Assembly (NCBI GenBank): GCA_018433245.1
Contig: JAHDRN010000019.1
Span: 3,622-67,621 of the forward strand
DNA from: Candidatus Proruminimicrobium quisquiliarum
GTDB taxonomy: Bacteria > Elusimicrobiota > Endomicrobiia > Endomicrobiales > Endomicrobiaceae
Length of the DNA stretch: 64,000 nucleotides
Reading direction: 5' to 3'
Shown here in pieces: positions 3,371 through 63,056 of this stretch; within the stretch, counting starts at the first letter, position 1; the number at the start of each line of letters is the position of its first letter. The notes under the pieces were generated by a model. The model ran no database searches. It saw nothing but the letters and a program-made list of their open reading frames with translations, and was not told the origin of the DNA. Both the position numbers and the translations under genes were made by a program.

Positions 3371-4645
3371 TTACATTCCGTCCGGAAGTTTTTCCATAAT
3401 TTCAAGAACATTTTTTGTCCATTTGTCAATTAAAAGCTCTATATTCTTTGTTCTTAAAACATTGTAGTTCATATTATTAGCGGAATATCCTTTGCCGCCG
3501 ACATGATAGATAAAAGTGTCGCCCGCTATAACAATTTTATAACCGGCCTGTTTAACTCTCATACAATAATCAAAATCCTCATAGCCGCCGGGGCCGAACA
3601 TTTCGTCCAAAACTCCGACATTAAATAAAACTTCTCGTTTTATTAAAACACAAAAACCTATTATTCTGTTTACCGAAAACCAAAAACCGGCGTTTTTCTG
3701 CAAAATCTCTTTTGAAAACTTTTGTATCGCTTCATCATCGTCAGCCGAACCGTCAAAAACCACAACCTGCCTTCCTGACGCATGATTTGTGCAAGGCCCG
3801 ACGATTCCGATTTTTTTATCGCTTTCGGCGATTAACAGCATTCTGCTAAGCCAGCCGTCTGTTAAAATAACATCGTTATTTAAAAGCAATACATATTCGC
3901 CTTCTGAAATTTCTATTCCCTGGTTATTTGCGCATGCAAATCCTAAATTTGTCTCGTTAAGTATTACTTTTACGTTTGAATATTTTGATTTCAAATCTTC
4001 CAGATAAGTTTTTGTATCGTCTTTTGTTGATCCGTTGTCAACGAATATAAGTTCATAATTGACGTCTGCCGTATGTTTCATTAAAGATTCAACGCATATT
4101 TTTGTATCATCAAGCTGGTTGTAAGTCAGCATAACTATGCTTACAAGATATTTAGGTTTATCTTTAAATATTATTCCTTTTGCGGCAACATCTTCCGCAG
4201 TTTGTATTGGGATATCTGAAACTTCCTTTTCTATTACACCGGCATCTTCCGCATTTTCAAACACAATCGCGTCTGCCAACCGGCAATTGCTTATTTCCAT
4301 ACCGCCGGCCTTTTCCAACAATTTACTGACTTCATCGTATATGCTGCCGTTTTGTTTAATATATTCTTTAATATTGGATATTTCAGGCATAAACGACACC
4401 AACTTGGAATTGGGAGTCAGACTTTTTATAATCCTCAGCAATCTGTAGTCTTCGGTCAAACCCGCATAAGCGCAGACTATTATTTCATAAGAATTTGCAG
4501 TCAGTTGAGCTTTTAGAGCATCAAACGAGACATTATCAAAATAAAAAACATCGTGTTTATCTAAAATTTTGTCAAAGCATTTGGAATGTTTTTTGTCAAT
4601 ATTTGATTTAAAGCTTTCCGGTATTATCAATAAATTATTAGACAT
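3371..4645 (-). CDS. glycosyltransferase family 2 with an about 190 aa N-terminal domain of unknown function
   Basis: VSIVMLTYNQLDDTKICVESL...FVDNGSTDDT...LLLNNDV are GT2 motifs. Start moved to the ATG at 4643-4645 because the longer ORF (to 4726) runs through tRNA-Pro. Confidence 0.85.
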   Translation of the reverse strand: MSNNLLIIPESFKSNIDKKHSKCFDKILDKHDVFYFDNVSFDALKAQLTANSYEIIVCAYAGLTEDYRLLRIIKSLTPNSKLVSFMPEISNIKEYIKQNGSIYDEVSKLLEKAGGMEISNCRLADAIVFENAEDAGVIEKEVSDIPIQTAEDVAAKGIIFKDKPKYLVSIVMLTYNQLDDTKICVESLMKHTADVNYELIFVDNGSTKDDTKTYLEDLKSKYSNVKVILNETNLGFACANNQGIEISEGEYVLLLNNDVILTDGWLSRMLLIAESDKKIGIVGPCTNHASGRQVVVFDGSADDDEAIQKFSKEILQKNAGFWFSVNRIIGFCVLIKREVLFNVGVLDEMFGPGGYEDFDYCMRVKQAGYKIVIAGDTFIYHVGGKGYSANNMNYNVLRTKNIELLIDKWTKNVLEIMEKLPDGM

Positions 4646-49637: not shown

Positions 49638-50764
49638 ACCTCTTTTTCAGACGTATTTTTTCAATATCAATGAAAGAATATAAACATATTTTAAGAGACC
49701 CTTTTACTTTTGCCGCAGCCGTCGGCATTCCGATTCTTTTTGTAATATTTTTCGGGTTTATAATAGATCTTGATTATAAAGGCGTAAACGTCAACGTAAG
49801 AGACAACGACCAGACGGAATCGTCAAGGCGTTTTTTACAGCTTATGGGTTCAAGCTCGTATTTTAATCTTATTCCCCTGCACCAACAGTCTGAAGCGGAT
49901 AAAAAAATAAATCAAAATGATATGTCGGCCGTGTTGATAATACCGAAAGGATTCGGGCAGACCGTAAAAAAAGGAGAAGAACCGGCCCAAATGCAGCTTT
50001 TGATAGACGGAACAGATAACGCAAAAGCAGGTATCGTTACAAGCTATATAACGCTTGCTGCCGAAAAAGCGTCTGAGGTTTTATTTGATAACAACGGTAT
50101 TCAAAAATCTGCTTTAAATATCAAAACACGCTTTCTTTTTAATCCGGAACTTAACAGCAGATGGTTTATAGTGCCGGGACTGGGTACCGTTATAATAGGA
50201 CTTATAGCAATAGTTCTTACGGCTCTTACCGTTGCAAAGGAATGGGAAAACGGCTCTATGGAACTTCTTCTTGCAACGCCCGTATCGGCAACTGAAATAA
50301 TAATCGGCAAACTGATACCTTATTTTATACTTGCGCTTGCCGATATATTTATGATTTTTATATTTTCAATATTTGTTTTTGCGATACCTTTTAAAGGAAG
50401 TTTTCTGTTTTATGTTTTATCGTGCGTAATTTATATTACAGGCGCTCTGGCGCTCGGGCTTTTGATTTCTGTTATTACAAGAAAGCAGGAACAGGCTACC
50501 CAGATAGCTTTTGCCGTAGGAATTCTTCCGTCTTTTATTTTATCGGGATTTATTTTCCCGATTGAAAATATGCCTCTTTTTTTCAGGATTTTAACGGCCG
50601 TTTTTCCGCAGAGATGGTTTATGCAGATAAGCAGAAGCGTTTTTTTAAGCCCGTCGGGATTTTTTGAACTTATAATGCCGTTTTTATTTATAACATTTTT
50701 TGCTGTTTTAATGATATTTATATCAATTAAAAAATTTAAAAAAGATTTGGAAGTGACGCAATGA
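49634..50764 (+). CDS. ABC-2 type permease (YbhS/YbhR-like)
   Basis: N-terminal TM, large periplasmic loop and a C-terminal 5-TM ABC-2 domain (EWENGSMELLL). Confidence 0.85.
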   Translation: MNLFFRRIFSISMKEYKHILRDPFTFAAAVGIPILFVIFFGFIIDLDYKGVNVNVRDNDQTESSRRFLQLMGSSSYFNLIPLHQQSEADKKINQNDMSAVLIIPKGFGQTVKKGEEPAQMQLLIDGTDNAKAGIVTSYITLAAEKASEVLFDNNGIQKSALNIKTRFLFNPELNSRWFIVPGLGTVIIGLIAIVLTALTVAKEWENGSMELLLATPVSATEIIIGKLIPYFILALADIFMIFIFSIFVFAIPFKGSFLFYVLSCVIYITGALALGLLISVITRKQEQATQIAFAVGILPSFILSGFIFPIENMPLFFRILTAVFPQRWFMQISRSVFLSPSGFFELIMPFLFITFFAVLMIFISIKKFKKDLEVTQ

Positions 50765-51873
50765 GATTTACTATTTTAAAAGGTTATTTCATTAAGGAAT
50801 TTATACAAATTTTACGCGATAAAAAAATGATCGCTTTGATATTTTTTATTCCTATTATGCAGATGACTATGTTCGGGCTTGCCCTTACAAGCGAAGTAAA
50901 AAACATAGAGCTTGTAATTATCGCAAAGCCCGGCAAAATAGCAAGAGAACTTACCGCAAGAAGTATGGCGGGAGGCTGGTTTAAAAAAATAACAAATATT
51001 GACGTTTACAAAGAGTCCGACCCAGTTTCCCTTATACAAAAACATAAAGCGGAAGCCGTTTTAATTGCTCCGAAAGAAGGTTTTGAATACGCTCTTGAAA
51101 GAGGCGGTAAAGATATTCAGCTTCTTGTTGACGCAACAAATTCGCAGAGAGCCCAGCAGGTTTCAGTTTATGTAAAACAGCTTCTTTTGCAGACGGCAAG
51201 AGACAAATACGGAAAAGAAAACTTTAAAAATATGACAGACATAAAAACAAGAGTTTTGTTTAACCATTATATGAACACGGCGGATTTTATGATACCCGCT
51301 TTAATGGTAATGGCAAGTTTTATCGTTTTGATGCTTGTAAGCTCAATGAGTTTTACAAAAGAAATAGAAACAGGTACTCTTGAAAAACTTGTAGTTTCCC
51401 CCTCTTATACATACGAGATACTGTCAGGCAAAATACTGCCTTATTTTGTAATCGGTCTTCTTCTTATGACTTTTATGCTTGTTACGGGAATAGGATGGTT
51501 CGGGCTTTCTTTCAGAGGAACGATATGGCAGCTTTTGATAACAGCGATACTTTTCATAGGTTCTGCTTTATCATGCGCCGTTTTAATTTCAACTTTCGCA
51601 AAAACACAGCAGCAGGCGATGATGGGAAGCATTTTGTTAATTCTTCCGGCAATACTTCTATCGGGAATCCTTTTTCCCGTTGAAAACATTCCGCAGTCGG
51701 TAAGATGGATATGTTATCTTAACCCGATGATATATTCGGTTACAAATTTCAGAAGCATAATCCTCAAAGGCGGAGATTATCTGCTATGTCTGCAAAACTG
51801 CGCCGCATTACTGTTAATCTGCATAATATTATCGGCAGCAGCCTACAAAAACTTTAAATCTAAATTTAATTAA
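50761..51873 (+). CDS. ABC-2 type permease (YbhS/YbhR-like)
   Basis: Same architecture (EIETGTLEKLV); paralogue of the preceding gene. Confidence 0.85.
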   Translation: MRFTILKGYFIKEFIQILRDKKMIALIFFIPIMQMTMFGLALTSEVKNIELVIIAKPGKIARELTARSMAGGWFKKITNIDVYKESDPVSLIQKHKAEAVLIAPKEGFEYALERGGKDIQLLVDATNSQRAQQVSVYVKQLLLQTARDKYGKENFKNMTDIKTRVLFNHYMNTADFMIPALMVMASFIVLMLVSSMSFTKEIETGTLEKLVVSPSYTYEILSGKILPYFVIGLLLMTFMLVTGIGWFGLSFRGTIWQLLITAILFIGSALSCAVLISTFAKTQQQAMMGSILLILPAILLSGILFPVENIPQSVRWICYLNPMIYSVTNFRSIILKGGDYLLCLQNCAALLLICIILSAAAYKNFKSKFN

Positions 51874-51923
51874 AATAATTTTTAATATTGTATAATCTTA
51901 AAAAATGCGCATAAGGAGCAGGA

Positions 51924-52979
51924 ATGAAAAAATTTATTTCCGTCTTATGTTTTTTGTTTATAAACATTTTTATTTCAAATTATTCTTTAACGCAAGCGGC
52001 AGAAACAGACGCCGACAGTTTGAAGCAAACAACCGTCACTTCTTATTTGCAGAAAAAAATCACAAAGGGCAAAAATCTGATTTTCTGTTCAACAATGCAG
52101 CTTGCATGGAATGCTTTGTGCGATGATATTATAAAAGCTCCTTTGGAACTGTCGGGAACACCTGAAATTCAAACAATGCTCAATGAAAGATTAACTGGCA
52201 AAGAAGATATAGCCCCAGACGCTTACATCGCAATGGCAGGATTTAACAGAGACGGCATTGTTAAAAAAATAGACAACGCGTTATTAAATAAATTTGATAA
52301 AAAAAACGGATGCGGAATAACGCTAATGAGCCCTGAAGATATACTTGCGTATGCCTATCTGTTTAAAAAACTTGAATTTAAAAATAAATTTGAAGATCTA
52401 AACGATAATCCTATTTTTTTCAAAAATGAAACAGAAGTAGAAACTTTCGGAATAAAACAATATTCATACGAAATTGCTAAGCAGGTTAAAATACTTTATT
52501 ATAACAATGACAACGATTTTATATTAAAACTTGAGTCCAAATCTCAAAATGACGAGATAATACTTGCAAAAATAGAGCCTAAAGAAACGCTTTTATCAAC
52601 CGTTGATTATGTTTTTGAACAAATTAAAAATAAAAAAACTATTGCCATAGAAAAAGGAGATATCCTAAAAATACCAAAATTTGACTTTGATATTTTCAAA
52701 AAATATTCGGAACTAATAAACAGAGATTTTCTTAATAAAAATTTTGAAGGATACTTTATATCAGATGCATTTCAGGGAATTAAATTCAAACTTGATGAAA
52801 AAGGAGTAATCCTTGAATCATACGCGGCTATAAGAGGAGAAAAAAGCATGCCATATTTGCCGGGAACAAAACGGTTAATTTTTGACAAGCCTTTTTTATT
52901 TTGCCTTAAAGAAAAAACAGGCAAATATCCGTATTTCGTAATGTGGATTGATAACGCCGAATTAATGTTAAAAAAATAA
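51924..52979 (+). CDS. secreted serpin-like protein, copy A
   Basis: Signal peptide. Collinear serpin motifs NLIFCSTMQLAWNAL (s6B/hB), ILAYAYLFKKLEFKNKFE (s3A), ILKIPKFDFD (s2C), KLDEKGVILESYAAI (s5A/hinge) and FDKPFLFCLKEK (s4B/s5B). Confidence 0.7.
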   Translation: MKKFISVLCFLFINIFISNYSLTQAAETDADSLKQTTVTSYLQKKITKGKNLIFCSTMQLAWNALCDDIIKAPLELSGTPEIQTMLNERLTGKEDIAPDAYIAMAGFNRDGIVKKIDNALLNKFDKKNGCGITLMSPEDILAYAYLFKKLEFKNKFEDLNDNPIFFKNETEVETFGIKQYSYEIAKQVKILYYNNDNDFILKLESKSQNDEIILAKIEPKETLLSTVDYVFEQIKNKKTIAIEKGDILKIPKFDFDIFKKYSELINRDFLNKNFEGYFISDAFQGIKFKLDEKGVILESYAAIRGEKSMPYLPGTKRLIFDKPFLFCLKEKTGKYPYFVMWIDNAELMLKK

Positions 52980-53035: not shown

Positions 53036-53127
53036 TATTATGCCTGCAAAACTGCGCCGCATTATTGCTAATCTGCATAATATTATCGGCAGCAGCCTAC
53101 AAAAACTTCAAATCCAAATTTAATTAA
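53032..53127 (+). pseudogene. relic copy of the last 31 codons plus stop of the ABC-2 permease gene
   Basis: Aligns without gaps to 51778-51873. By my count there are 8 nucleotide differences, all synonymous in the permease frame (YLLCLQNCAALLLICIILSAAAYKNFKSKFN*). No upstream coding context. Confidence 0.8.
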
Positions 53128-53176
53128 AATAATTTTAATATTGTATAATCTTAAAAAATGCGCATAAGGAGCAGAA

Positions 53177-54223
53177 ATGAAAAAATTTATTTCCGTTTTA
53201 TGTTTTTTATTTTTAAGTATTTTTATTTCAAATTATTCTTTCACTGAAGCGGCAGAATCCATTGACGCTGACAGTTTACAGCAAACAACCGTCACTCCTT
53301 ATTTGCAGAAAAAAATCACAGCAGGCAAAAATCTTGTTTATGGTGCAACATTTCAGCTTGCATGGAATGCCTTATGCGATGATATTATAAAAGTTCCTTT
53401 GCAATTATCAGGAACATCGGAAATACAAAATATGCTTAACGAGAGATTAGTCAATAAAGAAGATATTGCGGAAAATACTTGCATCGCCATGGCAGGTTTT
53501 GAAAGAAATAACATTGTTCAAAAAATAGATGAGGCTTTATTAAAAAAATTTAACAATACAAAAGGCTGCGGCATAAAATTACATAATCCCAGTGATATTC
53601 TGGCTTATGCCTATCTGTTTAAAAATCTTGAATTTGAAAATAAATTTGAAGATTTAAACTCAAATCCGATTTTTTTCAAAAATGAAACAGAAGTAGAAAC
53701 TTTCGGAATAAAACAATATTCATACGAAATTGCCAAGCAGGTTAAAATACTTTATTATAACAATGACAACGATTTTATATTAAAACTGGAATCCAAATCT
53801 CAAAATGATGAGATAATACTTGCAAAAATAGAGCCTAAAGAAATGCTTTTAACAACCGTTGATTATGTTTTTGAACAAATTAAAAATAAAAAAACTATTG
53901 CCTTAAAAAAAGGTGATATCTTAAAAATACCAAAGTTTGATTTTGATATTTTTAAAAAATACCGTGAACTAACAGGCAGAAGTTATGGCGTCTATGCTTT
54001 AGCAGGCGCCATTCAGGGAATTAAATTTAAACTTGATGAAAAAGGAGTAATCCTTGAATCATATGCAGCTATTGTGATGCAGGAAAAAAGCATATCAGTC
54101 CCGGTGGAGCCAAAACAGTTAATTTTTGACAAGCCTTTTTTATTTTGCCTTAAAGAAAAAAACGGCAAATATCCGTATTTTGTAATGTGGATTGATAACG
54201 CGGAATTAATGTTAAAAAAATAA
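53177..54223 (+). CDS. secreted serpin-like protein, copy B
   Basis: Paralogue of 51924-52979 with an identical promoter/RBS region. The central about 90 aa are nearly identical. The N-terminal half and the loop before FDKPFLF are divergent. Confidence 0.7.
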   Translation: MKKFISVLCFLFLSIFISNYSFTEAAESIDADSLQQTTVTPYLQKKITAGKNLVYGATFQLAWNALCDDIIKVPLQLSGTSEIQNMLNERLVNKEDIAENTCIAMAGFERNNIVQKIDEALLKKFNNTKGCGIKLHNPSDILAYAYLFKNLEFENKFEDLNSNPIFFKNETEVETFGIKQYSYEIAKQVKILYYNNDNDFILKLESKSQNDEIILAKIEPKEMLLTTVDYVFEQIKNKKTIALKKGDILKIPKFDFDIFKKYRELTGRSYGVYALAGAIQGIKFKLDEKGVILESYAAIVMQEKSISVPVEPKQLIFDKPFLFCLKEKNGKYPYFVMWIDNAELMLKK

Positions 54224-54246: not shown

Positions 54247-54666
54247 ATGAAAAAATCAGTTTTGTTTTTATTATCTGTATTTGGATTTGTTTTTGCAGGA
54301 TGCGCTACTGTTCCAACAACTTGGGAACAAACTGTTATCAATTATCAGGCGGCGGCTCCGAAAGTAGAATTAGGAATGTCAAAACAGGAAGTAGTTGATA
54401 TACTGAACCCGACTCAAACACTATTGGCAAATACTGAAATAAAACAACCTGACAGATATATAAAAGACGGCGTTAACGTTGAAATTCTATATTACAGAAG
54501 CGGCTGGATTTCTGACAACTTAAATACCGATGACGAGTACACACCCTATGTTTTCAATAACGGAAAACTTGTCGCAATCGGATGGATGACTATCGGAGGA
54601 CCGAAAAACACATCTTCCTCCGTACCAAAGGTAAACGTCCAAAACAAAACCACTGTTATTTATTAA
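54247..54666 (+). CDS. lipoprotein (BamE/SmpA-OmlA-like or DUF3192-like)
   Basis: Lipobox FAGC. GMSKQEVVDILNP is typical of SmpA/OmlA-fold lipoproteins; family assignment tentative. Confidence 0.6.
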   Translation: MKKSVLFLLSVFGFVFAGCATVPTTWEQTVINYQAAAPKVELGMSKQEVVDILNPTQTLLANTEIKQPDRYIKDGVNVEILYYRSGWISDNLNTDDEYTPYVFNNGKLVAIGWMTIGGPKNTSSSVPKVNVQNKTTVIY

Positions 54667-54715
54667 TTTATATACTGTATGAACTCCAAATCAAAATTTA
54701 GTATAGAGAGAGGTT

Positions 54716-55225
54716 ATGATTATGAGTAATTCAAACATTCATCATTTAAAAGATAGTGAAGAAACTAGAAACAAAATTCATTATGCATATGTTTTGGTAA
54801 AAGATTACTTAACTTATAAAAAAGGTCTCGCTGAATTAAAAATAGGTGTTGGGGCATACATTTATGATTTGGACAAGCCTGCTTGTTTAAATATTAGATA
54901 TTACTCTAAGGCTTTAGAGGATGAATTTAAGAAAAAGTTATCTTTTAAGGAGTGTATGAGAGCAGAATGCAAAAAAAAAGTTTCTGATATAACTGAAGAA
55001 CATATGATATGCAGATGTGTACTAAGAGATGAATTTATAAAAATGATAACTGAAAAAGCTACTGAAAATGAATGTTTTGATTTTTTAGATAAACATCTTA
55101 TGATATGTACAATGAAAAAGGAAGAAGAAAAAAAATTACCGAAAAACAGACAAGGCTTAAAGAATTGGAAAAAATATTATGATGATGCTGGAATAAATCC
55201 ACTTCCAGCAATAAATAACAAATAA
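54716..55225 (+). CDS. hypothetical Cys-rich cytoplasmic protein, 169 aa
   Basis: ORF with a GAGAGG RBS and 8 Cys; no family recognised. AT-rich. Confidence 0.5.
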   Translation: MIMSNSNIHHLKDSEETRNKIHYAYVLVKDYLTYKKGLAELKIGVGAYIYDLDKPACLNIRYYSKALEDEFKKKLSFKECMRAECKKKVSDITEEHMICRCVLRDEFIKMITEKATENECFDFLDKHLMICTMKKEEEKKLPKNRQGLKNWKKYYDDAGINPLPAINNK

Positions 55226-55260
55226 AGAGATGTTGAGTTTTTTACTCGAATTTTATGATT

Positions 55261-55329
55261 CGCCTGTTAATCTGCATAATATTATCGGCGGTTGCCTACA
55301 AACACTTCAAATCCAAATTCAGTCAATAA
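55261..55329 (+). pseudogene. second, more diverged relic of the permease 3' end
   Basis: Encodes RLLICIILSAVAYKHFKSKFSQ* in the homologous frame. Its core TAATCTGCATAATATTATCGGC is identical to 51814-51835 and 53068-53089. Shares the TTC/TCC variants with the relic at 53032. Confidence 0.7.
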
Positions 55330-55502
55330 TGTTATTATCCTTCATTTTTTATTAAACTTCTTATTCTCAACTTTAATACATTTATTTATATTTTATTTCT
55401 TATTACTGATTTGAAAATGGTTTATTTTTTTGATAAAAATTAATAGGATACCAATAATTTTGCAATATTGTTTTAAAATAAATATAAATAAATACTAATA
55501 GT

Positions 55503-55531
55503 TTGACAATTATATATAAAATTTATAGAAT
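55503..55531 (+). promoter_or_regulatory. near-consensus sigma-70 promoter of the orphan cassette
   Basis: TTGACA (55503-55508), 17 nt spacer, TAGAAT (55526-55531). The first ATG follows only 10 nt after the -10 box. Confidence 0.55.
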
Positions 55532-55541
55532 TTGGTTGGTT

Positions 55542-55898
55542 ATGGCTAACACACAAAAAGAAAATTATTATTGGATTCCTGAATCTCTTAAGTGGACTTT
55601 CAAAATAATGAATTCACCTAATTGTTATTTGCTAATAATAATACTGGTTATCGTTTCCTTTTTAATATTAACTCTTCGAATACCTGATACCCAACTTATG
55701 TCTTTTATAAAACTAGTGCTTAATCAAAGTGTTTTCTTAGTTATTTTTATTGCAATTGAAACATTTACTATTTTTTTATGGAGAACTGATAGAGAAAATT
55801 TAAAAGCAGAAATTAAACGATTATCTGAAGAAAAAAGTAGATATATGCATAGCAATAAGAAATTACCAAAACACAATCCTAGTGGAGCAGAATTTTGA
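55542..55898 (+). CDS. small membrane protein (2 TM plus a C-terminal charged/coiled segment)
   Basis: Hydrophobic helices CYLLIIILVIVSFLILTL and VFLVIFIAIETFTIFLW, then ENLKAEIKRLSEEKSR. Start taken at ATG 55542 because the TTG at 55503 coincides with the -35 box. Confidence 0.5.
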   Translation: MANTQKENYYWIPESLKWTFKIMNSPNCYLLIIILVIVSFLILTLRIPDTQLMSFIKLVLNQSVFLVIFIAIETFTIFLWRTDRENLKAEIKRLSEEKSRYMHSNKKLPKHNPSGAEF

Positions 55899-55917
55899 TT
55901 TAATAACGGAGGAAACT

Positions 55918-56472
55918 ATGGACAATTATCAAGATGTAGTTACTATTTTAATAATAATCTTATCAGTTTCGACAAGTGCTTTTTTTATATCAAAGCTTTT
56001 GCTATGGAAAAGACAAATAGCATTTGAAAAATATTTGTTTAGGTTTTTCAAACTTAGAGATGATTTAGCATATTTAGTATTAGAAGATAAGTTGCAACAA
56101 AATAGTGATGTATATGAATTTTTAATCTTTAATATTAATAAATATATTGCAACGATTGAAGATACTGATCTCTGTAGTTTTTTAATTAAATATATTGAGA
56201 CAAATTCTGACAAAAAATATATTGATAATTTGGTTGCCATCGTTCAAAAATGCAAAAATAGCAGCAAAGAAGTTTCTATCATTATGAAGGAATTTGAAAA
56301 AATCACCAACAGTATTATTACTGACAATAGCCTTATATTTATATTCATATTTATTGGTACAAAAATATTATCAAAATTTTTCAAACATAATATCCCTTCA
56401 TTTATTTCAAAATTTAATCAACTTAGACCTATAGTGAAAGAACAAGAAAATAGAATAGCAAATTCATACTAA
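55918..56472 (+). CDS. membrane protein (N- and C-terminal TM helices flanking a soluble helical region)
   Basis: ATG 55918 with a GGAGG RBS. TM helices VVTILIIILSVSTSAFFISKLLLW and LIFIFIFIGTKIL. No family recognised. Confidence 0.55.
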   Translation: MDNYQDVVTILIIILSVSTSAFFISKLLLWKRQIAFEKYLFRFFKLRDDLAYLVLEDKLQQNSDVYEFLIFNINKYIATIEDTDLCSFLIKYIETNSDKKYIDNLVAIVQKCKNSSKEVSIIMKEFEKITNSIITDNSLIFIFIFIGTKILSKFFKHNIPSFISKFNQLRPIVKEQENRIANSY

Positions 56473-56499
56473 TTTATTACACTATAGGGGGGTATTTTA

Positions 56500-56859
56500 A
56501 TGGAAGTTACTCTTTACAATCGTTCAGGGAATCCTATTGCTTATATTGCAGATGATGCTGATAATGCTATATATATGTGGAATGGGCATGCTGTATGTTA
56601 TATTTTTGAAGATAAAATATATGGTTGGAGAGGTAAGCATATTGGCTGGTTTATAAACAATAGAATATATGACTTAAATGGTTTTCTTGTTGGATTTACA
56701 AAAAATACGTGTCCAGTTATTACTACAATACCAACCATAAAAAATATAAAATATATTAAATCTATTAAATCCGTACGCAATATAGCAACTACTAAGCCGA
56801 TTTTATCTACACAATATTCAGAATACAATTTAAAATTTTTTTTGGAACAAAATAGCTAA
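56500..56859 (+). CDS. soluble protein with four tandem beta-hairpin-like repeats (possibly the 4-fold beta flower family)
   Basis: Four repeats of [LI]Y-x3-G-x2-[IVL]-x-[YWF]: LYNRSGNPIAYI, IYMWNGHAVCYI, IYGWRGKHIGWF and IYDLNGFLVGFT. GGGGGG RBS. Family name from memory, unverified. Confidence 0.55.
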   Translation: MEVTLYNRSGNPIAYIADDADNAIYMWNGHAVCYIFEDKIYGWRGKHIGWFINNRIYDLNGFLVGFTKNTCPVITTIPTIKNIKYIKSIKSVRNIATTKPILSTQYSEYNLKFFLEQNS

Positions 56860-57090
56860 TAAAACTATATCTGCAAACTAATAACTACAAACTCTCAACA
56901 CGGTTCCTTAAATTTCGTCTATATTAATTTATCTATAACTATCTCTAATCTTACTTCTAATTAACAGCAATTCAGATTTTGTATTTTCAATACTCAATAT
57001 CTATGATTGATCTATGCGCATATTACGCTTTGAAACAAAGTTTCTTAATCCAATTTTTGAATAATATTTAATATTTTACAATATATTTTT

Positions 57091-57222
57091 GCCACGTTTA
57101 GCACGTCTATGAATGAACTGTTTTTAGTTGTAAAATTTTCAAACAGATAAAATTTTAAGTTCACTTGTCCGAAGAAAAATCCGTTTCATTATGCAGTAAG
57201 GATTTTTCAAGTTGTGAACTGT
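57091..57222. repeat. partial copy of the dispersed intergenic repeat
   Basis: GCCACGTTTAGCACGTCTATGAATGAA (57091-57118) aligns with 11497-11524, and AGGATTTTTCAAGTTGTGAACTGT (57199-57222) with 11563-11586, in the same order. Confidence 0.55.
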
Positions 57223-57271
57223 GCGACAAAAAAAACAGAAATGAATGTGCGACTTGTGGCGGGTCTTTTTG

Positions 57272-57302
57272 GTTACTTTTTAGACTCGTGATAAAAAGTA
57301 AC
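57272..57302. repeat. perfect 11 bp inverted repeat (hairpin) in an ORF-free region
   Basis: GTTACTTTTTA-9 nt-TAAAAAGTAAC. Confidence 0.6.
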
Positions 57303-57447
57303 TTGCCGTGGGTCAAACACCCACAGTTGTTGCCTTTAAAGGCTATAATGCAAAAGTATTGCCCCGTGCGGAACATCCACACAAGCTTTTTGAATTAAAA
57401 ATTAATAAGTTGATTAGTCTTGTTTTGATTAAACTTTGAAAAAGTTA

Positions 57448-59643
57448 CTATTTAAATTCTTCTTTGGCCAACTCCCCAATCGTCACATAATCGGTCTTCC
57501 CGTTGCCCATAAGATACATCTGTTCTATAATTTTTATTTTTTTAGGAATGAACAATTCGCTTAAACCCTGTTTTTTAAATTCGGCGCCTATTTCGCTAAA
57601 AACGGTATTCGGTCTTGTGGTATATAAAACAAGCTGCTCGCCTTTTTTGGGGTCTGGAACCGCCACTACGGCATGCTCAAAATCAGGCCATAATTTTAAA
57701 ATAGCCGTTTCAACAGCCGCAAGCGAAACCATTTCGCCCGCGATTTTTGCAAACCTCTTTGCCCTTCCTTTTATCGCTATATAACCTTCGTTATCTATTG
57801 TTACAATGTCGCCCGTATCATGCCAGCCGTCTTCAAGAGGCTGTATTACGCCGGGCTTGTCTATTTTCATATAACCTACCATTACATTTTTGCCTTTTAT
57901 AAAAAGTCTTTTTCCTTCTTTTACGCCCGGCACTTCTTCAAGCCTTGTTTCTATGCCGACAAGAGGTCTGCCGACGGTGCCGTATTTGTAATACATATTT
58001 GTGTTTACGGCTATAACCGGAGAAGTTTCGGTAACGCCGTATCCTTCCCAGATTCTTACGCCGAACGTATTAAAGAAATTTTTTGCGGTCGCTTCTTTAA
58101 GTTTTTCCGCTCCCACAACCGCTATTCTGATTGAATAAAAATCGTAAGGATGGGCAGACTTTGCGTATCCGTTTAAAAAAGTATCCGTTCCGAACATAAT
58201 CGTTGCGTTTGAATCATAAATAAGTTCGGGGATAACGCGGTAATGAAGAGGAGACGGATACATAAAAGTTTTAATTCCGCTGAGAAGCGGCAAAAGCATT
58301 CCCCCCGTCAGTCCGAATGAATGAAAAACCGGCATTGCGTTAAAAAAACTGTCGGTTATGCCGAAATCAAGAATACTGCGTATCTGAAATATGTTTGCCA
58401 TAAAATTTTCATGGCTTAAAACTACGCCTTTTGGCACGCCCTCTGAACCTGAAGTAAATAATATAACGGCAGGTTTTTTTGGGTCATGTTTTTTACCCGA
58501 TGACTTTTTATAATACCAGCCGGGAAAAAAAGATGCAAAAAGACCGGTAAGTTTATCTTTAAGTTTTATCGTTTTTGCCAAATCTTCAAGATAAATAATA
58601 TTTACGCCCTCGGCTTTCATCGCGTTTACGACGTCGTGAAGGCTTCCTTTTTCTATAAATTCCCTTGAAGTGTAAACATTTTTAATGAGCGCCGTTTTGC
58701 AGCATGAGATCATATTTTTTACGCCAGTTGAAAAATTAAGCATCGCGGGCGTCAGCCCGAACGCCTGCATTCCCAAAAATACCGCCGTGCCGGCTATGGA
58801 ATTGGGAAGCATAAAACCGACGTAATCTTCTTTTTTATTTTGTTTTGCTATAAGTTTTCCGAGTATAAAAGAAACGGTAAAAAGTTTGCCGTAATTTACG
58901 GTTTTGCGGGACATATCCTCAAGAATTATCTTGCCGCGTCCTACAAGATTTTTTGCGTCTATAAAAGAATCAAAAAGAGTCTGGTCCCAGTTTACCGAAT
59001 TATAACGCATATTCGTCATAAGATCGTATAAGTTTCTCATGGCTTCTTTTCTGCGTTCTTCGCCTTTTAAGTTTTCCGCTATTTTAAGCCTTGTGGCCGG
59101 GAAAATATTTACCGTTATTTTACTTTTCGGACGGGTTTTTAAACTTCCGCCGAAATTGGAAAACATCAGATACTGGTTGCCTTCAATGCATACCGGTATT
59201 ATCTGCGCGTCGCATTTGTCGGCTATAATGGCGGAACCCGGATAAATTTTCATAAGTCTGCCGGTCGTAGTGATACGCCCCTCCGGAAAAATTACGACTC
59301 TGTTTCCTTTTTTTACTTCGTCTATTATAGATTTTACGGCCATAGGCTGAGCAGGGTCAATCTGATAAAATTTCGCAAGATGCAAAAACGGCTTAACGTA
59401 CCACTTTTTAGCTATCAAAGGATTTATGGCAAAATGCAGGTCTTCGGAAATGTAAGACCACAGAAAAAAAGCGTCAAGAAAAGAATTATGGTTTGCTATG
59501 ATAAGAGCGTTTCCCGAAGCGTTTTTAAAATTTTCAATGCCTTTTACTTCCACTTTGAAAATATAATTAAAAATTCCTCTCAATATCATTCTGACGATAT
59601 TGACCGGAAGAATTATCTGGAATATGTTTTTTTCGGCAGCCAT
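57448..59643 (-). CDS. aas: bifunctional acyl-ACP synthetase / lysophospholipid acyltransferase (Aas-type)
   Basis: N-terminal PlsC motif (NHNSFLDA...FPEGRIT) followed by an AMP-binding domain (TSGSEGVPKGV, GYGVTET, TGDIV). At 731 aa it is similar in size to E. coli Aas. Confidence 0.85.
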   Translation of the reverse strand: MAAEKNIFQIILPVNIVRMILRGIFNYIFKVEVKGIENFKNASGNALIIANHNSFLDAFFLWSYISEDLHFAINPLIAKKWYVKPFLHLAKFYQIDPAQPMAVKSIIDEVKKGNRVVIFPEGRITTTGRLMKIYPGSAIIADKCDAQIIPVCIEGNQYLMFSNFGGSLKTRPKSKITVNIFPATRLKIAENLKGEERRKEAMRNLYDLMTNMRYNSVNWDQTLFDSFIDAKNLVGRGKIILEDMSRKTVNYGKLFTVSFILGKLIAKQNKKEDYVGFMLPNSIAGTAVFLGMQAFGLTPAMLNFSTGVKNMISCCKTALIKNVYTSREFIEKGSLHDVVNAMKAEGVNIIYLEDLAKTIKLKDKLTGLFASFFPGWYYKKSSGKKHDPKKPAVILFTSGSEGVPKGVVLSHENFMANIFQIRSILDFGITDSFFNAMPVFHSFGLTGGMLLPLLSGIKTFMYPSPLHYRVIPELIYDSNATIMFGTDTFLNGYAKSAHPYDFYSIRIAVVGAEKLKEATAKNFFNTFGVRIWEGYGVTETSPVIAVNTNMYYKYGTVGRPLVGIETRLEEVPGVKEGKRLFIKGKNVMVGYMKIDKPGVIQPLEDGWHDTGDIVTIDNEGYIAIKGRAKRFAKIAGEMVSLAAVETAILKLWPDFEHAVVAVPDPKKGEQLVLYTTRPNTVFSEIGAEFKKQGLSELFIPKKIKIIEQMYLMGNGKTDYVTIGELAKEEFK

Positions 59644-62600
59644 TATTTTAAAATCCCTTTTGCGATTTCTATAAGTTTATTGTAATCCGTTTTTCCCGTT
59701 CCGACTATCGGTATATCGGCAAGAGTTTCAACCCTGCATGGAACGGTCAATTCCGCAAGCATTTTATCCTCAAATACTTTTTTAAGTTCCGAACACGTTA
59801 TGTTTGAAGCAGTGGTAAAAAGAACAATCTGTTTTCTTGCCCTGCTGTCGGCAATAACAACGATTGCATGTTTGCTTTGAGGATATGCTGCAGATATAAG
59901 AGTTTCAAGCTCGGTTAATGAAATATTTATACAGTTCATTCTTATGAATCTTTTTGTCGTGTCTTTTACAAAAACAAAGCCGTCTTCGTCCATATTTACG
60001 ATATCGCCGGTATCATACCAGCCGTCGGCAAGCGTTTTTGGAACCGATAAAACTCCGTCTTTTATATAACCGCTCATTACGTTTTCGCCTTTTACGTAAA
60101 GGCGGTTCCCTTCAAGATGAGGGGCTTCAACAAGCTTATACTCCATTGACGGCAAAAATCTTCCTACGCTGCCCGTTTTGAAATATATCGGCGTATTAAC
60201 TGCGACCGTGGAAGAAGTCTCCGTTGAGCCGTAAGCTTCAAAAACTCTTATGCCGAACCCGTCAGCCCATAAGTTTGCCGTTTCTTCCCTTAATTTTTCA
60301 ACTCCGGCAACCACAAACCTTATAAAATAAAAATCATACGGATGAGCCGATTTGGCGTATCCGTTTAAAAACGTGTCGGTTCCGAATATTACCGTTGAAT
60401 TTGTTTCGTAAACAAGCTCCGGCACTATTTTATAATGAAGAGGAGAATGGTACATAAAAACTTTTATTCCTCTTAAAAGAGGCAAAAACATACCGCCCAC
60501 TATTCCGAACGAGTGAAATATAGGCATTGTATTAAAGAAACTGTCCATAAGCCCGAAATCAAGAACGCTTGAAATCTGGTTTCTGTTTGTCTGTATATTT
60601 TTATGCGTAAGAGCTACCGCTTTCGGAGTGCCTTCCGCGCCTGAAGTATACAGAACGACGGCCGTTTTGGAATGATCTATATTTTTGTTTATTTTTTTAT
60701 AGTAATAAGACGGGCAATACGACATCATATAAGCAAAAAATTTGTCGGAAACCTTTAATTTTTTTTTCAAATCTTCAATATAAATTACATTTATGCCGTT
60801 ATCGGAAAGTTTTACGGCGAGCTCTTCAAGAGCCGACTCTTTTATAAATGCTTTTGACGTAAAAATATTTTTTGCGCCCGTATTATTTATATATTCTATT
60901 ATGCTTCCTACGCTGTTTGCATAATTAATCATACAAGGAATTCTGTTTACGGCCGATAAAGAAAAGAACAATTCAACGGTAGTTTTTGAATTCGGAAGCA
61001 TCAGGCCTATATATTCATTTTCTTTTGTTTTTCTTCGGATAAGTTTTGAAAATGCAAAAATGGCGCCTATCAGAGAACCAAGCGATATGGGCGTTCTGTT
61101 TATATCGTCAAGGATTTCTTTATTTCTGCCGACAAGCTTTACGGCCTTTATAAGAGAATCAAATACGGTATCTGTAGTTAAACTGCTTGCAAACTTCATT
61201 TCGCACATAATATCGTAAAGTTTTGTGACGGCAATCTGTCTTCTCTGTCCGTCCGGTATTTCACCGTCAATCCCGAGCTTTCTGGGCGGTAATACAGTAA
61301 GCGTAATTTTTCTCTGCCTTCTGCTTTTTACTTTGCTTCCGAAATACGAGAAATCCGAATATTGGCTGCCTTCTATACAAACCGGAAGTATATCGGCATT
61401 ACTTTTATCGGCTATAACGGCAGGACCGGGATAAATTTTCATAAGACCGCCGGTTGTAGTGATTCTTCCTTCCGGAAATATCGCCACTATTCCGCCTTTT
61501 TTAAGCTCGTCAACTATGGATTTTACGACCATAGGATTAGTAGGATCAATAGCAAAATACTTTATAAGTTTTAAAAACGGTTTTACCAAAATTTTGTTTA
61601 TACTGTCGGTATTAATTGCAAATGAAACTTTTTCTCCGAAAGTTGTTGATAAAATAATAGCATCCAATAAAGAAGTGTGGTTTGCAATAATTAAAGTTCC
61701 GCCTTTACATTTTTCAAAATTTTCAAATCCCTTTACGTTAACGGAATAAAAAAGAGTCAAAAATCTTTTTGTAATCGTTCTTAAAAGATGCGCCGGAAGA
61801 AGAATTGAAATATAAACGGCAACCGCGATGTTAAACAGCGCGATAAAGGCAAGAGTCGTGGGAATAGGAAGATTACCCAAAAACAAAATACATATAACGG
61901 CGGCGGCAAGCATAAAAAACACGTTTACAAAATTATTTACGGCAAGAACGCGCCCTCTTATCTTTCTGTTTGCCACAACCTGAAGCATTGTCATAAGAGG
62001 AACGATATATAAACCGCCGAAAACGGAAAATGCAAACAAATCAAATATTATTCTTATCCCCGAAAAAGTGGTGAATATTTGTTTTATCTGTATTGAAGTT
62101 TCCAGATTTACGGCATTTGCACATAAAGCCAAATCCACAATAAAAACTGTCATAAAAACAACGCTTATAGGAATGTGCTTTAATGTAAGTTCGCTTTTTA
62201 AAAGGAAATAACTCAGTAATGCTCCTACGGCTATACCTGCGGCAAACAATAAAATTAAAAACATATATATTGATTCGTTTCCGTGAAGAGCAACTTGTGC
62301 AAAAGCAGGCATTTGCGATACCAGTATAACCCCGATGAACCAAAACCATGATATTCCTAAAATACAAAGATAAACATCTCTGCTCTGTTTAAGAAAAGAT
62401 ATGTTTTCTACGGCTGCTTTAAAAATATTTTTTGAAATTTCCAGAGGTTTCTGTTGCGGTGCAGGTTTTAATTCCGGCAGAAAAAAAGCCGCAACAATCC
62501 CCAAAACCGCAATTGCGGCAAGAATTATAAAAAGAAGCGTCCTGTCTGACTGGTAAACGGCGCTTCCGGCTATTACTCCGGATATGATAGACAAGTATGT

Positions 62601-63056
62601 TCCGGCCTGTATCAAACTGTTTGCGCATATAAGTTCTTCATTTTCAAGAATTTCCGGAAGTATGCTGAATTTTACAGGGCTTAAAACGGCCGAAAGAATC
62701 CCGAGCAGGAACAACACAAAAAGAAGAATCCATATATTTTTAAAAACAAAACCCCAGAACGCCAAAAGCAAAACGGCAAACTGGAGAATTTTAACGATTT
62801 TCACTATAACGTCTTTTCTGTATTTATCGGTTATTTCGCCGGCTGTTGCCGAAAATAACAAAAACGGCAGCATAAAAACTGCCACCATAAGAGAAACAAT
62901 CAGGGATCTGCTTTTTTCGCTCAAAGAAATAAGGTCAAAAACTACAAAAGTCGCAAAAGCCGACCTGAAAAAATTATCGTTAAAAATACCGAGGAACTGC
63001 GCGGCATAAAGAGAAAAAAATGAACGGCTGAAAAAGACTTTAAGCAAATTTTTCAT
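59643..63056 (-). CDS. triple fusion: MFS lysophospholipid transporter (LplT-like) plus PlsC acyltransferase plus acyl-ACP synthetase
   Basis: About 400 aa of MFS TM helices, then NHTSLLDA...FPEGRIT, then TSGAEGTPKAV...GYGSTET...TGDIV. Its stop overlaps the start of the downstream aas paralogue (TAATG). Confidence 0.85.
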   Translation of the reverse strand: MKNLLKVFFSRSFFSLYAAQFLGIFNDNFFRSAFATFVVFDLISLSEKSRSLIVSLMVAVFMLPFLLFSATAGEITDKYRKDVIVKIVKILQFAVLLLAFWGFVFKNIWILLFVLFLLGILSAVLSPVKFSILPEILENEELICANSLIQAGTYLSIISGVIAGSAVYQSDRTLLFIILAAIAVLGIVAAFFLPELKPAPQQKPLEISKNIFKAAVENISFLKQSRDVYLCILGISWFWFIGVILVSQMPAFAQVALHGNESIYMFLILLFAAGIAVGALLSYFLLKSELTLKHIPISVVFMTVFIVDLALCANAVNLETSIQIKQIFTTFSGIRIIFDLFAFSVFGGLYIVPLMTMLQVVANRKIRGRVLAVNNFVNVFFMLAAAVICILFLGNLPIPTTLAFIALFNIAVAVYISILLPAHLLRTITKRFLTLFYSVNVKGFENFEKCKGGTLIIANHTSLLDAIILSTTFGEKVSFAINTDSINKILVKPFLKLIKYFAIDPTNPMVVKSIVDELKKGGIVAIFPEGRITTTGGLMKIYPGPAVIADKSNADILPVCIEGSQYSDFSYFGSKVKSRRQRKITLTVLPPRKLGIDGEIPDGQRRQIAVTKLYDIMCEMKFASSLTTDTVFDSLIKAVKLVGRNKEILDDINRTPISLGSLIGAIFAFSKLIRRKTKENEYIGLMLPNSKTTVELFFSLSAVNRIPCMINYANSVGSIIEYINNTGAKNIFTSKAFIKESALEELAVKLSDNGINVIYIEDLKKKLKVSDKFFAYMMSYCPSYYYKKINKNIDHSKTAVVLYTSGAEGTPKAVALTHKNIQTNRNQISSVLDFGLMDSFFNTMPIFHSFGIVGGMFLPLLRGIKVFMYHSPLHYKIVPELVYETNSTVIFGTDTFLNGYAKSAHPYDFYFIRFVVAGVEKLREETANLWADGFGIRVFEAYGSTETSSTVAVNTPIYFKTGSVGRFLPSMEYKLVEAPHLEGNRLYVKGENVMSGYIKDGVLSVPKTLADGWYDTGDIVNMDEDGFVFVKDTTKRFIRMNCINISLTELETLISAAYPQSKHAIVVIADSRARKQIVLFTTASNITCSELKKVFEDKMLAELTVPCRVETLADIPIVGTGKTDYNKLIEIAKGILK

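Follow-up and report, generated by a model that had tools for sequence, protein, structure and literature searches.

This analysis concerns a 64-kb stretch of DNA (64,000 nucleotides; hereafter the window) from Candidatus Proruminimicrobium quisquiliarum, a member of the Endomicrobiaceae (phylum Elusimicrobiota), and within it a compact cassette of three plus-strand genes, labelled g1, g2 and g3 in their order. All positions given are those of the whole window. The cassette comprises a pair of genes for predicted membrane proteins followed by a gene for a predicted soluble beta-flower protein, and it occupies a slot whose contents vary between strains. The features of the locus are:

54667-57085, no strand: slot whose contents differ between strains, reaching from the DUF3192 gene to the conserved 3′ flank of the aas-like gene
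55264-55329, plus strand: relic of an ABC-2 permease 3′ end, forming the left boundary of the cassette; aligns with 51792-51896 and 53038-53149
55503-55531, plus strand: sigma-70-type promoter, TTGACA-17-TAGAAT, matching 11 of 12 consensus positions, the best site in the region
55542-55898, plus strand: g1, 118 aa, ATG start, assigned to the '2TM' family by a remote match
55918-56472, plus strand: g2, 184 aa, ATG after GGAGGA, assigned to the '1TM' family by a remote match
56500-56859, plus strand: g3, 119 aa, ATG after GGGGGG, 4-fold beta-flower family PF21784
56860-57085, no strand: cassette-specific 3′ non-coding tail, 226 nt, structure z-score +1.17
57251-57271, plus strand: first terminator-like hairpin downstream of g3, in the conserved flank outside the cassette

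An earlier note on this DNA, made without database searches, had described three tightly spaced genes behind a near-consensus promoter, and both observations hold. The spacers between g1 and g2 and between g2 and g3 are 19 and 27 nt long, each with a Shine-Dalgarno (SD) sequence (GGAGGA and GGGGGG, respectively). A mechanically called open reading frame (ORF) with a TTG start at 55503 was rejected, because this triplet belongs to the −35 box of the promoter. Throughout the window, TTGACA-N17-TATAAT with at most one mismatch occurs five times against 0.94 expected, and each of the five is correctly oriented and immediately precedes a gene, so that the promoter call is credible for this genome. 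The ATG of g1 begins 10 nt past the −10 box, just as the earlier note had it, and is not preceded by an SD sequence; a near-leaderless g1 mRNA is plausible. Scanning of the 27-nt gap revealed neither a promoter nor a terminator between g2 and g3, and no terminator-like hairpin occurs from the end of g3 until 57251. A hairpin covering the g2 stop codon and the SD sequence of g3 (56428-56488) was no better than shuffled sequence and was dropped as a regulatory element (z −1.7; 16 of 200 shuffles). A single consensus promoter, short spacers that contain SD sequences and the absence of terminators up to 57251 are the signals of an operon, and the three genes would presumably be expressed as one.

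The three encoded proteins

Hydropathy-based prediction places two hydrophobic segments in g1 (residues 29-47 and 54-72), followed by a 35-residue tail with nine K/R and five D/E, in agreement with its earlier description as a protein with two transmembrane (TM) helices and a charged tail. The protein is a remote match to the PADLOC model PDLC02978 '2TM-TIR' (E-value = 1.3e−6, model positions 35-114 of 124), and the same model is matched at 1e−10 to 1e−11 by its homologues from loci L009, L027 and L028; the homologue in L029 was detected by its match to a profile of the g1 family. When homologues from L009, L027, L028 and L030 were aligned, E90, I91, R93, H111 and S114 turned out to be invariant. 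The relatives share two TM helices, a RIP[DE]xxL loop and a YxAEIxRL...HG tail, and the family is characterized by a conserved cytoplasmic N-terminal segment and by the AEIxRL motif in the charged, helical tail. The searches assigned no Pfam family to g1 and produced no PHROGs match, and a hint of Spore_III_AF was rejected as sub-threshold in Pfam. We regard g1 as a predicted inner-membrane protein and a remote member of the '2TM' family.

The second protein had been thought to carry TM helices at both ends. This is half supported: the N-terminal helix (residues 7-25) is clear and conserved across the family, but the C-proximal hydrophobic stretch (133-151) is weaker (Kyte-Doolittle hydropathy 1.79) and not conserved. 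Protein g2 remotely matches the PADLOC model PDLC02977 '1TM-TIR' (E-value = 8.6e−8, model positions 31-162 of 186). A word-indexed search for homologues found g2 alone, and an exhaustive HMMER search was needed to collect the family, which has 42 representatives among 1.84 billion proteins; a repeat with the family alignment gave nine proteins. The same PADLOC model is matched by 39 of 41 aligned family members, with a best E-value of 2e−17. Members are ~175-200 aa long, carry a TM helix at the N-terminus and share the motif YRFxxFxLRDxL, in which R47 and D48 are invariant. The AlphaFold2 (AF2) model of g2 (predicted local distance difference test, pLDDT, 93.6) is all helical: the N-terminal TM anchor runs on into a very long helix, and the remainder is an all-alpha bundle. 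No Pfam family and no PHROGs match were found for g2, and hints of putAbiC, TACC and snurportin were rejected as sub-threshold in Pfam. The protein is thus best described as a putative TM-anchored helical bundle and a remote member of the '1TM' family.

The third protein matches PF21784 over its full length (E-value = 3.2e−29, bit score 102.1, Pfam gathering cut-off 25; residues 4-115 aligned to model positions 2-116 of 116), which turns the tentative link to the 4-fold beta-flower family made in the earlier note into a confident one, and we classify g3 as a full-length, predicted soluble member of this family. The four-repeat beta-hairpin architecture proposed for it is likewise supported. 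The repeat motif occurs exactly four times (L5-Y15, I24-Y34, I40-W50 and I56-F66), and the AF2 model has eight strands (3-6, 12-16, 23-26, 31-36, 39-42, 47-52, 55-58 and 63-67) forming four hairpins within residues 3-67, followed by a helix (111-115), with pLDDT of 85-90 for the hairpins and 82-90 for strands and helix taken together. The linker in between (residues ~76-97) is modelled as disordered. It contains, at residues ~79-97 (56734-56790), five to seven [IVA]-K-[YSN] triplets with lysine at every third position, a run which is seen in the DNA by Tandem Repeats Finder (TRF) as a 9-bp period; the length of this triplet linker is conserved in all homologues of the g3 subfamily, some of which read YAKYAKYAK.... 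A [DNEQ]xxG motif lies at two of the hairpin tips (N7-G10 and D58-G61), and all 32 invariant columns of the homologue alignment are kept in g3. Identities to homologues are 48-66% in the aligned set and 39-66% across the collected loci. All taxonomically labelled relatives come from Bacteroidota, while the host of the cassette belongs to the Endomicrobiaceae (Elusimicrobiota), a placement that also follows from the source names of proteins with over 90% identity to the PBP1A of the window. There was no PHROGs match for g3 and no tblastn match in GenBank phages or plasmids. Comparison of the AF2 models with the PDB (g2 and g3) and BFVD (g2) returned nothing below E-value = 0.5; judging by the models, neither fold has a solved relative within reach of these searches.

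The cassette had been called an orphan, a label that no longer applies, since all three proteins can be placed in described families (PADLOC 2TM and 1TM; PF21784); that the earlier note recognised none of them with confidence is due to its lack of tools. Both component families come with an experimentally characterized precedent. Rst_2TM_1TM_TIR is a three-gene system (2TM, 1TM and TIR) of the P2-like phage AC1, which defends E. coli from lambda, LF82_P8 and P2; as for TIR domains, those of CBASS and Pycsar induce abortive infection by depleting NAD+ (Rousset et al. 2022, PMC9122126). Cernunnos consists of one gene, an anti-phage cassette in the chromosomal integron of Vibrio cholerae, and PF21784 is its sole recognised domain; its protection against phages has been shown experimentally, and homologues are reported from Bacteroidota as well as Escherichia prophages (Darracq et al. 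2024 preprint, 10.1101/2024.07.02.601686).

The slot and its changing cargo

The limits of the slot were defined by blastn against the contig of a sister strain (L078), with which homology (93-94%) stops at 54666, after the DUF3192 gene, and restarts at 57086. Between flanks of ~93% nucleotide identity to the window, this strain (L078, 571-5652) carries genes for an isochorismatase, a DUF4268 protein, a restriction-modification (RM) enzyme in which HSDR_N_2, N6_Mtase and Eco57I are fused, and a specificity subunit. In a third strain (L079, GCA_964487915.1; 12197-15369) the slot is filled by a SocA_Panacea protein and its partner of 121 aa, a 392-aa protein of no assigned family and an isochorismatase. 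Thus, RM, toxin-antitoxin (TA)-like (Panacea-type) and g1-g3 cargo alternate between conserved flanks, and the slot is a defence/TA hotspot in this Endomicrobiaceae lineage.

The same region bears traces of repeated insertion. The last 20-30 codons of an ABC-2 permease gene (50761-51873) recur at 53038-53149 and 55264-55329, so that the permease 3′ end with its downstream promoter/leader is present in triplicate: the real copy (51792-51896), a full relic (53038-53149) and a partial relic (55264-55329). The last translates to LLICIILSAVAYKHFKSKFSQ and a stop codon, and the C-terminus of the permease reads ...LLICIILSAAAYKNFKSKFN, also followed by the stop. Different cargo stands behind each of the three copies. 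The permease relic and the cargo stack, both proposed earlier, are therefore real, as evidenced by the breakpoints against L078 and the copies of the permease 3′ end. The site has evidently taken up one piece of cargo after another, with g1-g3 as its last compartment (55330-57085); no integrase is visible in the window despite this pattern.

The cassette is AT-rich and CpG-poor, as the earlier note had remarked, and foreign in composition, with a GC content of 0.243 and a CpG observed/expected ratio of 0.62, compared with 0.357 and 1.51 for the whole window and 0.397 and 1.58 for the neighbouring aas-like gene. Such extreme AT content, the degraded permease relic at the boundary and the lack of a terminator of its own might be taken to mean that the cassette is a decaying, unexpressed relic of an old insertion. 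We consider this highly improbable: the three ORFs are intact and of full length for their families, the invariant residues are kept (R47/D48 in g2, E90-I91-x-R93 in g1, the 32 columns in g3), the promoter is near consensus and the SD sites are intact, and an identical copy of the cassette is present in an assembly of an independent read set (L026).

The non-coding stretch behind g3 did not live up to its description as repeat-rich. Searches of 56860-57447 yielded neither an Rfam family nor a tRNA, no structure that would be stable and no repeats beyond weak AT-rich matches, and the tail proper (56860-57085) likewise contains no detectable terminator, repeat, RNA family or structure. The remainder (57086-57447) is not cassette at all but conserved flank (~94% between strains; GC up to 0.39).

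Several neighbouring elements may be mentioned. Within 57086-57447, two terminator-like hairpins face each other (57251-57265 on the plus strand and 57375-57360 on the minus strand), a Cys-rich 77-aa ORF spans 57165-57398, and the segment has no Rfam hit. Upstream of the last permease relic, the variable slot also holds a 169-aa ORF (54716-55225), which produced no Pfam, PADLOC or PHROG match. Neither sister strain has this ORF; both carry the isochorismatase in its place. Two tandem paralogues (51924-52979 and 53177-54223) encode proteins of ~350 aa with signal-peptide-like N-termini; they are moderately AT-rich cargo (GC 0.30), and each has a sub-threshold match to the C-terminal part of the serpin family (E-values of 5e−4 to 8e−4). 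On the other side, two consecutive Aas-like fusion genes on the minus strand (57448-59643 and 59643-63056), the stop codon of one overlapping the start of the other, encode an acyltransferase + AMP-binding protein (731 aa) and an MFS + acyltransferase + AMP-binding protein (1136 aa).

Genomic neighbourhoods of the membrane pair and of beta-flower genes

In the search for loci related to g2, the whole family alignment and its nine-member subset were too little conserved, whereas a subgroup of seven members worked. Among the eight distinct g2-family loci, six have the g1 and g2 families adjacent and in the same order (the window, L009, L027, L028, L029 and L030); in the other two, g1 is replaced by a different protein of ~100 aa with one TM helix and a coiled coil. 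Four of the six pairs reside on IMG/VR viral contigs. The five pairs outside the window are found in these settings:

L027, IMG/VR viral contig: pair beside a cI-like repressor
L028, IMG/VR viral contig: pair beside Rha
L029, IMG/VR viral contig: pair beside Mu-type morphogenesis genes
L030, IMG/VR viral contig, 22-1558: pair immediately followed by the gene for a GH108 endolysin that has a PG_binding_3 domain
L009, metagenomic contig, 3571-4567: pair inserted between fabG and acpP of an otherwise standard fatty-acid synthesis operon

The L009 homologue of g1 is missing as a gene call in the source annotation. That the 2TM-1TM pair forms a module standing by itself, carried mostly by phages, looks new. 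Its presence on viral contigs raises the question of whether it serves prophage-type superinfection exclusion or lysis control, blocking DNA entry or acting in the manner of holin and antiholin without killing, with g3 assisting at the membrane. The position directly upstream of an endolysin, taken by the pair in L030, is the classical holin position; the size of g1, its two TM helices and its charged tail are holin-like, and the beta-flower clan CL0395 is shared with Tubby/scramblase-like lipid binders. However, the slot in the window contains neither an endolysin nor another phage gene, no holin family is matched, and the pairs on the other viral contigs occupy moron-like positions rather than lysis cassettes. 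Moreover, the pair of AC1 accompanies a TIR protein, and the TIR domains of CBASS and Pycsar act by abortive infection. On balance, an exclusion or lysis role is improbable.

To describe the surroundings of g3-like genes, 58 non-redundant loci of its close homologues were collected, the window included. Their partners fall into recurrent sets and a variety of single occurrences:

Bacteroidota, same strand: a trio consisting of a 142-aa protein with a coiled coil and, at its C-terminus, two TM helices, then a soluble 122-aa protein, then the beta-flower protein
5 loci, downstream of the beta-flower gene, same strand: 252-aa protein
3 loci, upstream, same strand: 194-aa protein containing a coiled coil and a single TM helix
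3 contigs, downstream, same strand: 184-aa N-terminally anchored protein
L053 and L062, same strand, 6-11 nt from the beta-flower gene: the 'Aga_Unknown' protein of PADLOC, with two C-terminal TM helices
L033, 2217-3363, same strand: CAP12/Pycsar-type TIR protein (PDC-S35; PF10137 at 8e−38), ending 1 nt before the beta-flower start
L022, 6 nt downstream, same strand: GIY-YIG protein
L001, immediate neighbour: Shedu SduA
L019, immediate neighbour: Septu PtuA/PtuB
L018, immediate neighbour: Dcm methyltransferase
L063, immediate neighbour: DUF4238
L075, immediate neighbour: Mrr-like nuclease
L051, immediate neighbour: KAP NTPase
L002, immediate neighbour: PDC-M64C

The 142-aa protein is present in 11 loci. 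In seven of these, all three genes stand together, touching or overlapping, with differing outer flanks (L021, 3203-4363; L012, L038, L039, L045, L051 and L076), while in L020, L037, L044 and L052 it lies beside the beta-flower gene without a detected 122-aa gene. Beta-flower identity within the group is 51-99%, and neither of the other two proteins has a Pfam, PADLOC or PHROG match; the trio is a candidate for an undescribed three-gene system. More generally, beta-flower genes very often overlap effector-like genes or lie less than 25 nt from them. Their sequences cluster partly by partner, with loci that have other partners or none interspersed in the same clades. This mixing, together with divergence within the trio down to 51%, indicates that the beta-flower gene is an often reshuffled resident of defence islands. 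Association of the beta-flower protein with interchangeable effector-like partners looks new.

The defence-island setting, which the earlier note had proposed to check through homologues of g3, is thus borne out by the Shedu, Septu, Dcm, DUF4238, TIR and Mrr-like genes that adjoin them. This bears on whether the cassette could be accessory cargo unrelated to phages, such as a membrane toxin/immunity pair or an envelope-stress module next to an unrelated small beta-barrel protein. In favour of such a role one may point to the non-defence genes associated with the slot in sister strains (isochorismatase, DUF3192), to the L009 pair inserted in a fab operon, and to the fact that none of the three families has a proven function in this lineage. 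Yet the anti-phage systems from which the two component families come have been validated by experiment, g3 homologues have a strong excess of defence genes beside them, and RM and TA modules fill the slot of sister strains. We consider a role outside phage defence improbable.

We infer function from homology and genomic context throughout, and the same applies to whether the genes are expressed, how the proteins lie in the membrane, whether g3 is coupled to g1-g2, what the trigger is and whether infection aborts. With this in mind, we read 55330-57085 (~1.75 kb) as a horizontally acquired cassette, in keeping with its foreign composition and the Bacteroidota relatives of g3, and most likely as an anti-phage one, a chimera of two described defence parts behind one promoter; the chance that this reading is correct in full, with the mechanism given below, we put at slightly below even. 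The phage-defence role, which had been voiced as speculation, has gained support from four independent sides: the PADLOC 2TM and 1TM matches, the identity of PF21784 as the Cernunnos domain, the RM and Panacea genes in the corresponding slots and the defence neighbours of g3 homologues. According to the mechanism we envisage, g1 (a holin-like 2-TM hairpin with a charged cytoplasmic tail) and g2 (a TM-anchored bundle) would form a latent complex in the inner membrane. On infection, the soluble beta-flower protein g3 might sense a phage cue or relieve an inhibition, upon which the membrane pair would oligomerise and depolarise or permeabilise the membrane, and the infection would be aborted before the release of progeny. 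This model is suggested by the AC1 precedent, by the operon structure and by the habit of beta-flower genes of forming tight operons with genes for effector-like proteins.

A number of findings weigh against this reading. First, no holin, pore or enzyme family was found for g1 or g2 in Pfam and PHROGs, or for g2 in the fold searches. Second, the matches of g1 and g2 to the PADLOC models are remote (E-values of 1e−6 to 1e−8), and AC1 was compared via these models alone. Third, the earlier note had asked whether the two TM genes co-occur with g3 homologues, and had named scattered homologues as evidence to the contrary; relatives of g1 or g2 turned out to be present at none of the other 57 non-redundant beta-flower loci, so that in part this is what we see. 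Conversely, neither a beta-flower nor a TIR gene lies beside the pair at any of the seven other g2-family loci, and in L009, L027, L028, L029 and L030 the pair stands alone, with no third conserved gene. Since the pairing recurs in six of eight loci but the triple is seen only in the window, the former is conserved and the latter so far unique, within samples that are small (8 g2-family and 58 beta-flower loci) and contain many short contigs. Fourth, distinct partner families with TM helices number ~5 of 25 beside beta-flower genes, which is not clearly above the ~25% background of membrane proteins; for this reason the apparent enrichment of TM partners (~20 of 58 loci) was not used as primary evidence. 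Finally, either half may be able to work by itself, given that Cernunnos is a single gene and that phages carry the pair alone.

The last consideration leads to the possibility of two independent defence systems sharing a promoter, namely, a 2TM-1TM module and a Cernunnos-like g3, which would make the cassette a miniature defence island. The lone pairs, the one-gene nature of Cernunnos and the uniqueness of the triple are all compatible with it. The same holds for the constant change of partners, even within one clade, and for 13 of the 57 other beta-flower loci, in which the 300 nt to the left and to the right of the gene are free of same-strand ORFs (in nine of these, one of the two sides has a contig end). 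Against independence speak the 27-nt gap between g2 and g3 devoid of terminator and promoter, the frequent overlap or close spacing of beta-flower genes with effector-like genes, the stability of the trio across 51-99% identity, and the third soluble protein attached to the membrane pair in AC1. Because each half is also found on its own, we keep the coupled model, in which g3 works with the g1-g2 membrane module, just short of probable, and regard two systems in tandem as unlikely but a serious contender. The layout of membrane effectors with a soluble sensor, suggested in the earlier note, is therefore tentative, as g3 homologues elsewhere lack g1 and g2 and the pair mostly lacks a third gene.

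If the coupled model is extended to the other loci, the Cernunnos-type beta-flower might be a portable sensor or switch plugging into interchangeable killing modules rather than a stand-alone gene. Its partners would be the 2TM-1TM pair in the window, the CAP12-type TIR protein, the GIY-YIG nuclease, unrelated small TM proteins and the 142-aa/122-aa trio. We consider this generalization possible but doubtful. If it is true, the window represents one example from a wide and so far undescribed family of modular systems for abortive infection and offers a handle on how a 119-aa beta-barrel confers immunity; we know of no established mechanism for either Rst_2TM_1TM_TIR or Cernunnos. The 2TM-1TM pair emerges as a module in its own right, usually without TIR and often phage-borne, which can be combined with a beta-flower protein in place of TIR, and beta-flower genes are habitually found at operon distance from effector-like partners inside defence islands. 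In addition, a defence hotspot is documented in the Endomicrobiaceae, a poorly studied and largely uncultured lineage.

Comparison with known systems

The cassette resembles Rst_2TM_1TM_TIR in having adjacent genes for a small 2-TM protein and an N-terminally anchored 1-TM protein of ~185 aa, which match both membrane models, in its three-gene organisation with a soluble third protein, and in its mobile or hotspot setting. It differs in that a beta-flower protein takes the third position, where AC1 has TIR, and in residing in a chromosomal slot of an elusimicrobial genome without phage genes instead of an E. coli P2 prophage. No TIR domain was found when g1, g2, g3 and the 169-aa upstream ORF were scanned with the Pfam and PADLOC models, and the slot contains no further ORF. 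As the defining TIR gene is absent, the cassette is not a member of Rst_2TM_1TM_TIR. Considering that the sampled 2TM-1TM pairs usually lack TIR, it may be accessory even in the known system. Searches with tblastn for six g2-family proteins (P0019, the L028 protein, P0050, P0041, P0024 and P0045) in GenBank phages and for P0019 in plasmids retrieved nothing. All three pairwise combinations of these parts do exist: 2TM-1TM with TIR in AC1, 2TM-1TM with a beta-flower protein in the window, and TIR with a beta-flower protein in L033.

With Cernunnos, the cassette shares a small protein made up of one PF21784 domain, a location in variable or mobile gene slots and, through the homologues reported by its authors, the phylum Bacteroidota, to which every taxonomically labelled relative of g3 belongs; this likeness is drawn through the shared domain. 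In contrast to the stand-alone integron cassette, g3 is the last gene of a three-gene operon with membrane proteins. Not being a single gene, the cassette is not a canonical Cernunnos.

The beta-flower families PF21784, PF21785 and PF21786 were introduced by Durairaj et al., whose original description of the fold agrees with the lack of a solved structure resembling the g3 model; they belong to Pfam clan CL0395 together with Tubby/scramblase-like lipid binders. The fold is a shallow barrel of eight strands in four hairpins that encloses a C-terminal helix. Protein g3 conforms to it in its full-length PF21784 match, its eight short strands in four hairpins, its C-terminal helix and the [DNEQ]xxG motif at two hairpin tips; the comparison covered strands and helix. 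The length-conserved [IVA]-K-x triplet linker of the g3 subfamily is a difference, as it finds no mention in that account of the fold.

Class II holins of phages and small membrane proteins for superinfection exclusion are similar to g1 in its 118-aa length, its two TM helices and its highly charged C-terminal tail, and in L030 it is the homologous pair that takes the place of a holin before the GH108 endolysin. Nevertheless, g1 has no holin family match in Pfam or PHROGs, the slot in the window has no endolysin, and the cytoplasmic N-terminal segment and AEIxRL tail motif of the g1 family are not described for holins. Judged by sequence relationships to these systems, the cassette appears to be a new combination of a 2TM-1TM pair with a beta-flower protein, in a new phylum.

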